Shown here piece after piece: positions 57,253 through 63,583 of a stretch of 64,000 nt of DNA (its first letter is position 1; each line of letters begins with the position of its first letter). The DNA is taken from contig JAYRZI010000002.1 in assembly GCA_041916575.1 (NCBI GenBank), forward strand, positions 85,117 through 149,116. The letters run 5' to 3'. The notes beneath the pieces are model-generated. The model made no database searches and was not told the origin of the DNA. It worked only from the letters and a program-made list of their open reading frames with translations. Position numbers and translations under genes: made by a program. The stretch comes from Haliangiales bacterium (lineage in GTDB: Bacteria; Myxococcota_A; Polyangia; Haliangiales; Haliangiaceae).

Positions 57253-57487
57253 GGGAAGCTCCGACGGAAAATAGGGCCGCGAGGCGGCGGCGCGGAATCT
57301 AGACGATCTGACCTGGCCTTTCAACCCGAGGGCAGCGGAGTGACCGCGCCAGCGGCGCACCGGTCCGGCCCTTGCTCGATAGGTGCATTTTGCGCGTTGG
57401 CTTTCGCCGCAAAGGCGCCGAATCCGCGCTCGGTTTGTGGTAAGCCCCAACCCCCCCGGGCCGTTCCCGGGCCCTTGGGAGCCCGCG

Positions 57488-59550
<2,063 letters not shown>

Positions 59551-59695
59551 GGGGCGGAGCTGGGCTGGGGCCGCTTGGGAGCGTCGAGAGCTGCCGCGCG
59601 CTGACGCTGCGGAAGTCCTCGTTTGCAAAACGAAAGTGGCGCGCGCCGAGGGCCGTGCGGTACCGTGCCCGCACGACCTTTCTTGGCGGGTGCCC

Positions 59696-60934
59696 ATGCT
59701 CACTCAGCTCTCGTTTCAGAACTATCGCACCTTCGAGCGGCCGGAGACGGTAGACCTTCGCCCGCTGACCGTGCTCATCGGGCGCAACAGCTCGGGTAAG
59801 AGCGCGATCGCCAGGTTACCCCTCTTGCTCGAGCGTGGCCTGTCGGGCAACGCCGAGGTGCCGTTGGCGCTCGAATTCGATGGTCACGACTTCGGCGCTT
59901 CGTTCGCGGATCTGGTGACCAACCGGCTGACCACCCGCGGGATCACGCTAGGGGTAAAAGGGCGCAGTGATGAGCACGACACGCCGTTCGAGTTGCGGGT
60001 CACCGTTGGGTACTGGCCCGAGTATCAGCTCCAGGCCATTCGCCAGTATCGATACTACTGGGAAGGCCAAGTCCGCTATGATCTCGAGTGGGATGGCGCC
60101 AGCGATCCCAACCAGCAGATGCTCTACCGTGATCACAAAAGCGGTCAGGTGCAGGAGCTCTCCTTCGCTGGCTTGATGCCGATCTTTACCAACATGATGG
60201 AGAGGGTCGATTTTCCGGTGGTTCGCTACCTCGGGCCGTTCCGCGACGCGCCGGCACGCGACGAGCGGATTCCGGAGGGCTCGACGTTCGAGGTCGGTCC
60301 ACGCGGTGGCAATGCCGCGCGGGTGCTGGCCAGCGACTGGATTCGTCGCGGGGGCAAGGTCCTGCAGCAGGTAGGGCAGTGGTACCGCGAACATCTGGGC
60401 GGGTGGCAGCTCGATCTGGAGCGCGATGGGCAGCGGTTTGCGGTGGTGCTGCGTTCGCCGCATGAACAGAGCGTCACGGTGAACCTGCGCGATGCAGGCG
60501 TCGGCCTCAGTCAGGTACTCCCCGTCGTCGTGCAGCATGAGCTGGACCGCGCCGGCGTTGCTCACGATCTCCTCCCCGGTGTGTCGACGCTCAACATCAT
60601 CGAGCAGCCGGAGCTGCATCTGCATCCCGGCGCTCATGGCGCGCTGGCAGACCTATACCTCGAGGCGATCGGTCGCGATGCCGGCCAGTTTCTCATCGAG
60701 ACTCACTCTGAGAACTTCCTCCTGCGCATCCGGCGCCGCATCGCAGAAGGGACCTTCTCGGCCGACGACGTTGCGCTCTACTGGGTCAACGACGATCTCG
60801 CCGCGACGCCGCGGGTTCGTCGCATCCACATCGATTCTCAGGGTGAGGTCGACTTTTGGCCGCGCGGCGTGTTCTCCGAGGATCTAGAGGAGGTCAAGGC
60901 CATTCGAGCGGCGCAGCGAGGGCGCGCGCCGTGA
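59696..60934 (+). CDS. ABC-type AAA family ATPase with a DUF3696-like C-terminal region (COG4938-like; OLD/AriA-like architecture)
   Basis: N-terminus [36 protein letters not shown] (Walker A). C-terminal …[26 protein letters not shown]…[21 protein letters not shown]…DDVALYWV gives an ABC D-loop/Walker B and an H-loop ETHS. Mostly α-helical between the two halves. Confidence 0.7.
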
Positions 60935-61911
60935 AGGTATCGCTCGATGTCTCGGTGACCGCCCGACCTGAGGAGCATGGCCACGATCTCGATGCGATCG
61001 TAAGGCGCTGCGAACTCGGGCAACACACTTGGCAGATCGACGACCTCGACGAGCTCCTCGCCTCGGAGTGGATGAAAGGCAAGGCCGCTTGGGACAAACA
61101 AGCTCGCTACGCAGAGAAGGTCTTCACGGACCTCATCTATGCGCCGCGGCGAACGGGGCTCTGGCTGTTGGTGACACAGGCCCCAGCTCCCGTTGGCTCC
61201 TCTACTCAGCGCTACTGTGTGCCCAAAGAGGCCCGGACGATCCTCGAAGAGCCCGCCTATCTGGTCGTCGAGAACAAGGGTTCCGATGGAGCGTTCTTGC
61301 GCGCTATCGCGCGTGTCTACTCTCGTGAGCGGGTCGTGCACGCGCTGGATCAGGGTTGGCTCGAGCCTGCGTCTGGCGGCGGCGGTGGTGAAGTGAAGAA
61401 GGAGGTACTACGCCTTCTCGGATCGCCGAACCCCGTTGCGCCCTGGAGGGTCATGGCCGTGCTCGATAGCGACCGGCTGATACCAGGGACGCTTCCCGAC
61501 AAGGTGAGCAAGCTGCAGCAAGAGCTGATGGGCTTGGGCGTCGCCGTGTGGGTACTCTTCAAACGCGAGATCGAGAACTACCTTCCGTACTCGCTGCTCG
61601 ATTCGCCGAGACGACACGAGGTCTACGTTTCTTTCATGCAATTGACGCGAGAACAACAGGACCACTACGACATGAAGGAGGGGTTTACGAAGAAGAAGGG
61701 CGCACAGGGCGTCGAAGTTCCTGCCGAGCAGGACCACCTCTTCAAGCAGGTCAGCGACTGGCATCGGACTCGGCTGCGCCGTGGTTTTGGCGACGACATT
61801 GGAAGCCGCTTCGGTCAGGCTTCGCTGGACCGCGAGGAGCTCGACACCGTATGCTCCTCCAACCCCGGGGAGCTAGAGCGCCTCCTCGATGCTCTCGAAT
61901 CGATCCTCTGA
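60931..61911 (+). CDS. Toprim-like (OLD / DUF4435 / DUF4276-like) putative nuclease
   Basis: GTG start overlaps the ATPase stop (GTGA). …AYLVVENKGSDGAFL… (Toprim Glu), about 60 aa, …VMAVLDSDRLIPG… (DxD), then …LFKREIENYLPYSLL…. Call made from motifs only. Confidence 0.45.
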   Translation: MKVSLDVSVTARPEEHGHDLDAIVRRCELGQHTWQIDDLDELLASEWMKGKAAWDKQARYAEKVFTDLIYAPRRTGLWLLVTQAPAPVGSSTQRYCVPKEARTILEEPAYLVVENKGSDGAFLRAIARVYSRERVVHALDQGWLEPASGGGGGEVKKEVLRLLGSPNPVAPWRVMAVLDSDRLIPGTLPDKVSKLQQELMGLGVAVWVLFKREIENYLPYSLLDSPRRHEVYVSFMQLTREQQDHYDMKEGFTKKKGAQGVEVPAEQDHLFKQVSDWHRTRLRRGFGDDIGSRFGQASLDREELDTVCSSNPGELERLLDALESIL

Positions 61912-61915
61912 GCCC

Positions 61916-63583
61916 ATGGCACAAGAATCTTCTGCCCCTGCCTTTGTCGTCAAGCCCGAGGTAGTCTTCCTCGAAGAGCTGTTCGAGGAGATCAAGCAAG
62001 GCAAGCTGCGCAGCCCGCGGTTCCAGCGTCCCTTCATCTGGGACGCCGAGGCCATGCGCAAGCTGTTCGAGAGCGTGGTGAAGGGCTATCCGATCGGCAG
62101 CCTACTCATTTGGGATCCTGGAGAGTATTACGAGTGCTTGCCTCACTTCGGGCCGATTGGACAAGAAGAGCCTGCCCGCGATCGCAAGGATCTGGCCTAC
62201 GTGCTGGACGGTCAGCACCGGCTGGCCACGCTCTATGGCGCGACTCATGTAGTTGGTGAACCGCCGGAGCAGTCCGAACTCAGGCGTTGGTGGATGTGGT
62301 ACGACCTCGACGAAGAGGAGTTCACTCATGCTCCGCGAGGCCACGTGGGGCCACATCATCTGCCGCTGCGCAGCATCTTGGGCACCACGGACTTCTTGCA
62401 ATTCTGCAGTCGGCTACTGAAGGAGCGGACTCGCGATGGCCAGGTGCTGGTCGGCCGCGCCGAGCGGCTGGCGCGCCTGATTCGTGGCTTCAAAGTGCCG
62501 GTGGTTCGAATTCGTGGTGGAGCGCTGGAGGACGCCAGCGAGATCTTCTCCCGGCTCAACTCATCTGGCAAGCCGATGGCCGCCGATCAACTCGTCTCGG
62601 CGTTGACCTATCGCGAAGGGCCGGGGGCCTTCGATCTGGCGGCGCGCATCAGCGAGATCTTGACCCAGCTCGGCGAGTTCCATTTTGCAGGAGTGGAGCG
62701 CTCTGCGGTGCTCCGTACTCTCGCGGGCACCGCCGGGATTCGCATTCACAGTAAACCGGGGACGCAGGTCGCGAACTTCTTGTTCAGCGAGAAGTTCACC
62801 CCCGCGAGTCGTGAAGAGCTGGTGGGAAAGACGCGCGATGGACTGGTGGCGGCGGCGCGGTGGCTATCGGTACGTTGTGGAGTGAAGTGCGATCACTTGC
62901 TGCCGTATGCCATGCAGCTCGTGCTGCTCTCGCAGTTCTGGTATCGACGTGCTCCCAGCGCCCACGAAGAGCAGGTGCTGCGCCGCTGGTTCTTCGCCAC
63001 CTCGTTCACCGGCTGGTTCGCCGGCGGCAACACCAAGCAGATCAATGATGATCTCGCGGATATGGGCCGCTTCGCGGAACATGGGCAGCAGAGCTTCCCG
63101 GTCTTCGATGAGCGAGCCAAACCGTTTCCTGAGCGCTTCGACTTGCGCGCGGCACGCGTGCGCGCGTTCCTTCTGGCGACGTTGATCCCGGCGCAGCCGT
63201 TGTATCGAGCGAGCCAGCCGGTAGACCTCGTGCCGATCTTCACCGATGACGATGCGGCGGTGGTGCCCAAGGTGTTCTCTCGACGCGAGGGCTCCGTCGC
63301 TGCCAGCTCACCGGCCAATCGAATCCTGTTGCCCAACCGTGATGGCAAAGGCGCGCGCCAGCAGCTCCTGGATTTGTCTGCAGACGAACAAGAAGTCGTG
63401 CTTCGCAGCCACTGCATCAATGACCTGGCTTTTCGCGCCCTGGAAGACGACGACCTGGAGGCGTTCGTGGCCGCCCGCACCATCTTCCTCATGGCCAGGG
63501 AGCGAGAGCTCTTTGCCGAGCTGCAGCTCGCGTTTCCGGATCGCGACGCCGAGGAGGCGGTGCCAGACGCCGGTGGCGGCTGA
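61916..63583 (+). CDS. DUF262 (ParB/Srx-like, GmrSD N-terminal type) domain protein
   Basis: …FQRPFIWDAEAMRKLFESVVKGYPIGSLLIW… and …YVLDGQHRLATL… are the DUF262 signatures. 555 aa. The C-terminal part shows no obvious H-N-H (DUF1524) motif. Starts 5 nt after the previous stop. Confidence 0.65.
   Translation: MAQESSAPAFVVKPEVVFLEELFEEIKQGKLRSPRFQRPFIWDAEAMRKLFESVVKGYPIGSLLIWDPGEYYECLPHFGPIGQEEPARDRKDLAYVLDGQHRLATLYGATHVVGEPPEQSELRRWWMWYDLDEEEFTHAPRGHVGPHHLPLRSILGTTDFLQFCSRLLKERTRDGQVLVGRAERLARLIRGFKVPVVRIRGGALEDASEIFSRLNSSGKPMAADQLVSALTYREGPGAFDLAARISEILTQLGEFHFAGVERSAVLRTLAGTAGIRIHSKPGTQVANFLFSEKFTPASREELVGKTRDGLVAAARWLSVRCGVKCDHLLPYAMQLVLLSQFWYRRAPSAHEEQVLRRWFFATSFTGWFAGGNTKQINDDLADMGRFAEHGQQSFPVFDERAKPFPERFDLRAARVRAFLLATLIPAQPLYRASQPVDLVPIFTDDDAAVVPKVFSRREGSVAASSPANRILLPNRDGKGARQQLLDLSADEQEVVLRSHCINDLAFRALEDDDLEAFVAARTIFLMARERELFAELQLAFPDRDAEEAVPDAGGG

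Follow-up and report, generated by a model that had tools for sequence, protein, structure and literature searches.

The window, a stretch of 64,000 nucleotides from a Haliangiales bacterium, carries three consecutive genes on its forward strand, here called A, B and C (Table 1). The middle gene, B, had been predicted at 60931-61911 (+), and it is a real gene by our analysis, lying in an in-frame open reading frame of 60856-61911 in the ORF listing. Its GTG start at 60931, first put forward as tentative, is now supported by four lines of evidence: the GTG overlaps the stop codon of the upstream ATPase gene by 4 nt (GTGA); the same 4-nt overlap recurs in distant loci; the product begins MKV, with M1 kept in 95% and V3 in 86% of 148 homologues; and an identical 326-aa protein is already on record as a called gene (P0001). 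A longer TTG start at 60856 was rejected, as no homologue has anything matching the 25 residues it would add, and the long antisense ORFs across the region were set aside as the usual high-GC artefacts.

Table 1. Genes, domains and motifs of the three-gene cassette, numbered by position in the window
Feature	Position	Strand	Details and basis
Gene A, ABC ATPase, 412 aa	59696..60934	+	AAA_15/AAA_21 and C-terminal DUF3696 tail; PDC-M55A, NsnB-like
Gene B	60931..61911	+	326 aa, GTG start, TGA stop 61909-61911; PDC-M55B family
B residues 1-97, small inactive PIN-like alpha/beta domain, proposed docking module	60931..61221	+	Model, pLDDT 89.3
B residues 98-225, Toprim core	61222..61605	+	E114, D119, G150-G151, D179-S-D181, R212-x-x-E215-N-Y; hhalign, conservation
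B E114-N-K-G-S-D119, Toprim glutamate and second acidic residue	61270..61287	+	Both 100% conserved (n=148)
B D179-S180-D181, DxD motif	61465..61473	+	99%, 92% and 98% conserved (n=148)
B R212-E-I-E215-N-Y-L-P219, conserved acidic helix after last Toprim strand	61564..61587	+	Conservation
B residues 226-326, helical C-terminal region	61606..61908	+	Conserved Q242, K249, G251, G285-F-G287, E314; model
Gene C, DUF262 (ParB-like), 555 aa	61916..63583	+	PDC-M55C, NsnA/GmrS-like

The three products match the PDC-M55A, PDC-M55B and PDC-M55C models at full length, in the same order and on one strand, over 59696-63583 (1.4e-122, 2.9e-51 and 4.9e-128, respectively). PDC-M55 is one of 145 PDC phage-defence candidates, a set defined by its embedding within BREX, DISARM or type I RM loci, and corresponds to cassette CAS_00179, FAM_00005>>FAM_02935>>FAM_00004 (Payne et al. 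2024, bioRxiv 10.1101/2024.01.29.577857). A search of the literature for "PDC-M55" yielded no paper; the accessible parts of the text and supplements of Payne et al. 2024 give the cassette code, and a description of the middle protein's domains was not found there. The B family comprises about 2,025 representative clusters at E ≤ 1e-3, and the 148 representatives analysed here, all of which match PDC-M55B, share 21-57% identity with the window protein, bar one close relative at 87%.

Related loci were collected with a 12-sequence B alignment. In 30 of 34 genome loci, A, B and C lie on one strand with their ends overlapping or nearly touching. Gene A is absent from three of the other four because the locus is cut by a contig end, and the last, L024, is decayed; wherever a related locus is long enough, the genes follow one another as ATPase, nuclease and DUF262. 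The same arrangement was also found on a Leclercia IncFII plasmid, where it adjoins an integrase.

Domain searches gave B no name. The window protein found no family in Pfam or NCBIfam scans, and neither did 12 or 148 of its relatives in Pfam scans, where scattered weak matches look like chance; the Pfam OLD-like_TOPRIM model (PF20469) was matched by neither the window protein nor the 148 relatives. Searches of PDB chains with the protein itself, a 12-sequence profile and a 148-sequence profile reached no solved Toprim structure, and the chains that did match (MS2 coat protein, a sialyltransferase and FAM166C) were discarded as chance. The profile of the B family, searched against 5.8 billion sequences with hmmsearch, matched the Toprim domain of a fused AAA_15/AAA_21-Toprim protein, P0167, with an E-value of 4.5e-7. 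Alignment of the family with residues 399-529 of P0167, its Toprim, by hhalign gave 96.8% (E 2.3e-10), with the VE(N/G), GG, DSD and KREIENYL motifs all in register; the E114-D119 stretch of B pairs with VEG-RDD of P0167, and KREIENYL is identical in both. Over its ATPase region, P0167 is itself matched by models of GajA and Old, and several of the GajA ones reach into its Toprim. Furthermore, the weak secondary PADLOC matches of the B family (n=148) are mainly to Toprim effectors, i.e. HEC-01B, mad4, AriB and GajA.

The AlphaFold model of the whole of B (pLDDT 89.6) shows a four-stranded parallel sheet flanked by helices and followed by a helical region, which can be superposed on OLD catalytic regions. 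Foldseek against the PDB returned weak matches (E 0.02). In the structural comparison, the OLD catalytic regions were clearly better, with the Toprim domains of AriB, GajA and retron Ec67 coming after. The PIN-like domain at the N-terminus lacks the acidic residues of PIN nucleases, and only M1, V3 and H32 are conserved there. The original prediction of a stand-alone Toprim of the OLD group, partnered with a separate ABC ATPase, is thus borne out by the fold, the profile match to P0167, the full acidic set described below and the gene linkage. The product of gene B is probably a metal-dependent nuclease of the OLD/Toprim kind that carries a small PIN-like domain, presumably for docking.

The motifs of the active site lie where they had been placed. 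LVVE114NKGSD119 is present, with the codon for E114 at 61270-61272; the D179-S180-D181 triad follows 65 residues after E114 (about 60 had been estimated); and K211-R-E-I-E215-N-Y-L-P219 occupies 61561-61587. The prediction had staked itself on conservation of the Glu and the DxD among homologues, and these residues are kept in 100% (E114), 99% (D179) and 98% (D181) of the 148 representatives. Across the same set, E114, D119, R212 and E215 are invariant, G150 and G151 are 99% conserved, and N216, Y217 and P219 are at least 97% conserved. An invariant Glu at strand 1 or just ahead of it, a conserved Gly following strand 2 and a DxD make up the Toprim signature of the OLD-like branch, and all are present. 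The full acidic set of E114, D119, D179, D181 and E215 is 98-100% conserved at low sequence identity, which fits selection on catalysis.

In BpOLD, the metal site is formed by E400, E404, a Gly, D455/D457 and E508, with E404 and E508 serving the second metal and the catalytic lysine, K562, located in the helical domain (PMC6755086). Judged by position, E114 and D119 of B would correspond to E400 and E404, and we propose that E215 may be the equivalent of the metal-B ligand E508; K249 is a putative counterpart of the OLD catalytic lysine. By this analogy, E114, D179 and D181 would bind metal A, D119 and E215 would bind metal B, and the two sites together would allow two-metal phosphodiester cleavage by B.

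Gene A is matched in Pfam by AAA_15 (1e-17), AAA_21 (1e-8) and DUF3696 (1.8e-5). In PADLOC, besides its PDC-M55A match, it matches NsnB at full length (1.1e-41) and a HEC-03 ATPase model (2.7e-39). Among solved structures, the ATPase of Thermus OLD (TsOLD, Class 1; 6p74) is closest to it in sequence. Its DUF3696 tail contains the motif W388-P-x-G-V-F393. Walker A (G29-N31-G34-K35-S36) and the H-loop (E335-T-H337-S) do not vary. In the window copy, Walker B reads E303-Q-P-E306, and in the family it reads E-[Q/E/H]-P-E, suggesting that ATP hydrolysis by the window copy may be slow or absent. Gene C matches GmrSD_N in Pfam (4e-23, residues 19-230) and, in PADLOC, HEC-05 (2e-17) and weakly NsnA (2.4e-7) in addition to PDC-M55C. 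Its conserved motifs are QR..W (Q37, R38 and W42), DGQHR (98-102) and F211...N215, and its closest solved relative is the DUF262 domain of BrxU (7p9k). We considered C as a nuclease of the GmrSD type and rejected this, as there is no DUF1524 match and no conserved His.

B might instead be a catalytically silent adaptor or regulator that uses its Toprim fold for binding only, with toxicity or restriction arising elsewhere, e.g. in C or a host factor. Degenerate enzyme folds are common in such systems, and the PIN-like domain of B is itself one. However, the acidic set of B is complete and almost unvarying among homologues of mostly 21-57% identity. Moreover, Pfam finds no recognisable nuclease domain in A or C, and the C-terminal half of C has neither a conserved His nor an acidic cluster. 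A silent B is, in our view, highly improbable, and we retain B as the candidate nuclease.

The original prediction had also assigned B to the DUF4435/AriB proteins and the locus to PARIS-like systems, and these assignments did not hold. The Pfam DUF4435 model (PF14491) matches none of the 148 relatives at E ≤ 1 and does not match the window protein, and the PADLOC AriB models leave window B unmatched at E ≤ 1 and make weak contact with three of the 148 (best 0.005). In PARIS, trigger-dependent release from the ATPase is followed by AriB dimerisation and cleavage of tRNA-Lys (PMC11464382). If the cassette were of this type, an AriA-like hexamer would hold B, an orthologue of AriB (DUF4435), and free it on sensing a phage anti-restriction protein, whereupon B would dimerise and cleave a tRNA. 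The split ATPase/Toprim layout is the same (PMC11464382), and the partial match of gene A to the AriA model (6e-20) points in this direction, as do the few AriB contacts. In contrast, the best-scoring stretch of that AriA match covers only the 40-residue P-loop end, whereas the match to NsnB runs the full length (1e-41), placing gene A nearer to NsnB than to AriA, and B superposes clearly better on OLD catalytic regions. PARIS (AriA/AriB, Class 4 OLD) has two genes, but the cassette family has three fixed genes, of which the DUF262 gene is obligatory. Unlike AriB, B is not a DUF4435 protein. Finally, both proteins show features of Menshen, B in its PIN-like domain and the NsnB-like ATPase in its DUF3696 tail; the accessible part of PMC11464382 describes neither a PIN-like domain in AriB nor a DUF3696 tail in AriA. 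A PARIS-type system is unlikely here, and the three-gene cassette resembles Menshen more than PARIS.

The genomic context bears on whether the cassette serves immunity at all. Its GC content is 58-65%, while six of nine upstream 500-nt bins lie at 67-73% and three at 64-67%. Housekeeping genes, with no defence island, surround it in the window and in most related loci, and a tblastn search of the phage collection gave no match. These neighbours, the absence of phage matches and the copy on a conjugative plasmid beside an integrase would also suit a non-immune DNA-transaction module of mobile elements. Such a module would join a ParB-like NTPase to an SMC/Rad50-like ATPase and a Toprim nickase, and its task might be, for example, partition, stabilisation or addiction; DUF262 is indeed a member of the ParB superfamily, and the ABC ATPase A is of the SMC/Rad50 kind. 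However, the close relatives of each protein are all defence proteins, with NsnB, HEC-03, AriA and GajA related to A, OLD-type Toprims to B, and HEC-05/BrxU, NsnA and SspE to C. The cassette was detected inside BREX, DISARM or type I RM loci, and some related loci are flanked by Pgl/BREX, DISARM, RM or Septu genes (PglX, PglW, DrmD, a type IIG RM enzyme or Septu genes). The loci are distributed patchily over six phyla, which fits a mobile defence gene set and argues against such a module. We regard the non-immune role as quite unlikely, a little more so than the PARIS-type system.

Taken together, the data suggest that B is probably the nuclease effector of a horizontally mobile three-gene cassette, the candidate defence system PDC-M55, in which A is the ABC ATPase and C the ParB-like DUF262 protein. 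We infer a role in defence, contacts between the proteins, a trigger and a substrate, DNA or RNA, and the working cycle proposed here is drawn from Menshen models and from PARIS, Septu and Gabija structures. By analogy with published AlphaFold models of Menshen, the PIN-like domain would dock B on the DUF3696 tails of an oligomer of A, and the nuclease would thereby be kept silent. Protein C, which may be an NTP-binding DNA sensor like NsnA, GmrS, SspE or BrxU, would recognise foreign or modified DNA and signal to A. An ATP-dependent rearrangement of A would then free or activate B, and B would cut nucleic acid, stopping the phage or the cell. The original idea of a toxic effector that the ATPase would let go on sensing a phage trigger is a reasonable analogy.

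The Toprim and PIN-like assignments of B add to the record of PDC-M55 and offer a testable domain-level reading for about 2,000 protein clusters that have no Pfam or NCBIfam model and are annotated only as "hypothetical protein". They tie this candidate to the OLD nucleases by catalytic chemistry and to Menshen by its layout of sensor, transducer and effector. If the cassette does defend against phage, a ParB-like DNA sensor would be able to control OLD-type nucleases by way of a separate ATPase, and HEC-03, Menshen and PDC-M55 would all make use of the PIN-like/DUF3696 interface as a reusable connector. The copy on the enterobacterial plasmid Leclercia pYUSHP29-2, at 57383-61106 of NZ_CP087282.1, is a practical construct for E. 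coli. It is possible, although we advance this tentatively, that PDC-M55 is a distinct and widespread class of split OLD nucleases, a "fifth class" and a circularly permuted sister of Menshen, in which the DUF262 NTPase reads foreign DNA and an NsnB-type ATPase holds a two-metal nuclease via its degenerate PIN domain until triggered. If so, the pairing of DUF3696 tail and PIN-like domain in HEC-03, Menshen and PDC-M55 would be a general plug-and-socket, with one ATPase clade serving interchangeable effectors.

Among known systems, the window cassette is a divergent member of PDC-M55, from which nothing structural sets it apart. B and the OLD family, both Class 1 (P2 Old/TsOLD) and Class 2 (BpOLD/GajA), appear to have their conserved elements in one and the same order: the Glu, a second acidic residue four to five positions on, the Gly, the DxD and, in the helix that first follows the sheet, another acidic residue. 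However, ATPase and Toprim form one chain in OLD and are encoded by separate genes here, B adds a PIN-like domain, and a DUF262 protein is obligatory. HEC-01 consists of an ABC ATPase and a separate Toprim protein with the BpOLD metal site and gave no defence in the published test, while HEC-03 combines an ATPase with a PIN-domain protein and needs both genes for defence (Payne et al. 2024, bioRxiv 10.1101/2024.01.29.577857). The HEC-01B models are the commonest weak secondary match of the B family, and gene A matches the HEC-03 ATPase model. In contrast to the cassette, both are two-gene systems without a DUF262 protein, and the partner in HEC-03 is a VapC-like PIN protein without a Toprim domain.

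Menshen, composed of NsnA, NsnB and NsnC (Millman 2022; Li et al. 2025, PMC12065111), is built from the same three functional parts, i.e. a DUF262 ParB-like protein, an ATPase and an effector. NsnA is a ParB-DUF262 protein with QRxxxW, DGxQR and FxxxN motifs and a C-terminal DNA-binding (ParBDB) domain (PMC12065111); gene C has the DUF262 domain and all three motifs, but its HMM match is weak (2.4e-7) and it is much larger, with 555 aa against the 385 positions of the NsnA model. Like NsnB, gene A encodes an ABC ATPase of the AAA_15 type that has a degenerate Walker B (EN in NsnB) and ends in a DUF3696 tail. NsnC has an inactive PIN-like domain followed by a C-terminal nuclease, and the known effector set includes Toprim-fold nucleases (PMC12065111); B is predicted to have the same plan, an N-terminal inactive PIN-like domain and a C-terminal nuclease domain, but its Toprim is neither DUF4276 nor RloB by Pfam. 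The two systems also differ in gene order: Menshen was collected as an NsnA-like gene, then an NsnB-like gene and then a third gene (PMC12065111), whereas the window and all 30 complete related genome loci have, in Menshen terms, the order NsnB-like, NsnC-like, NsnA-like, and PADLOC keeps Menshen and PDC-M55 apart. The cassette thus appears to follow the logic of Menshen, but its gene order is permuted and its Toprim effector comes from another family.

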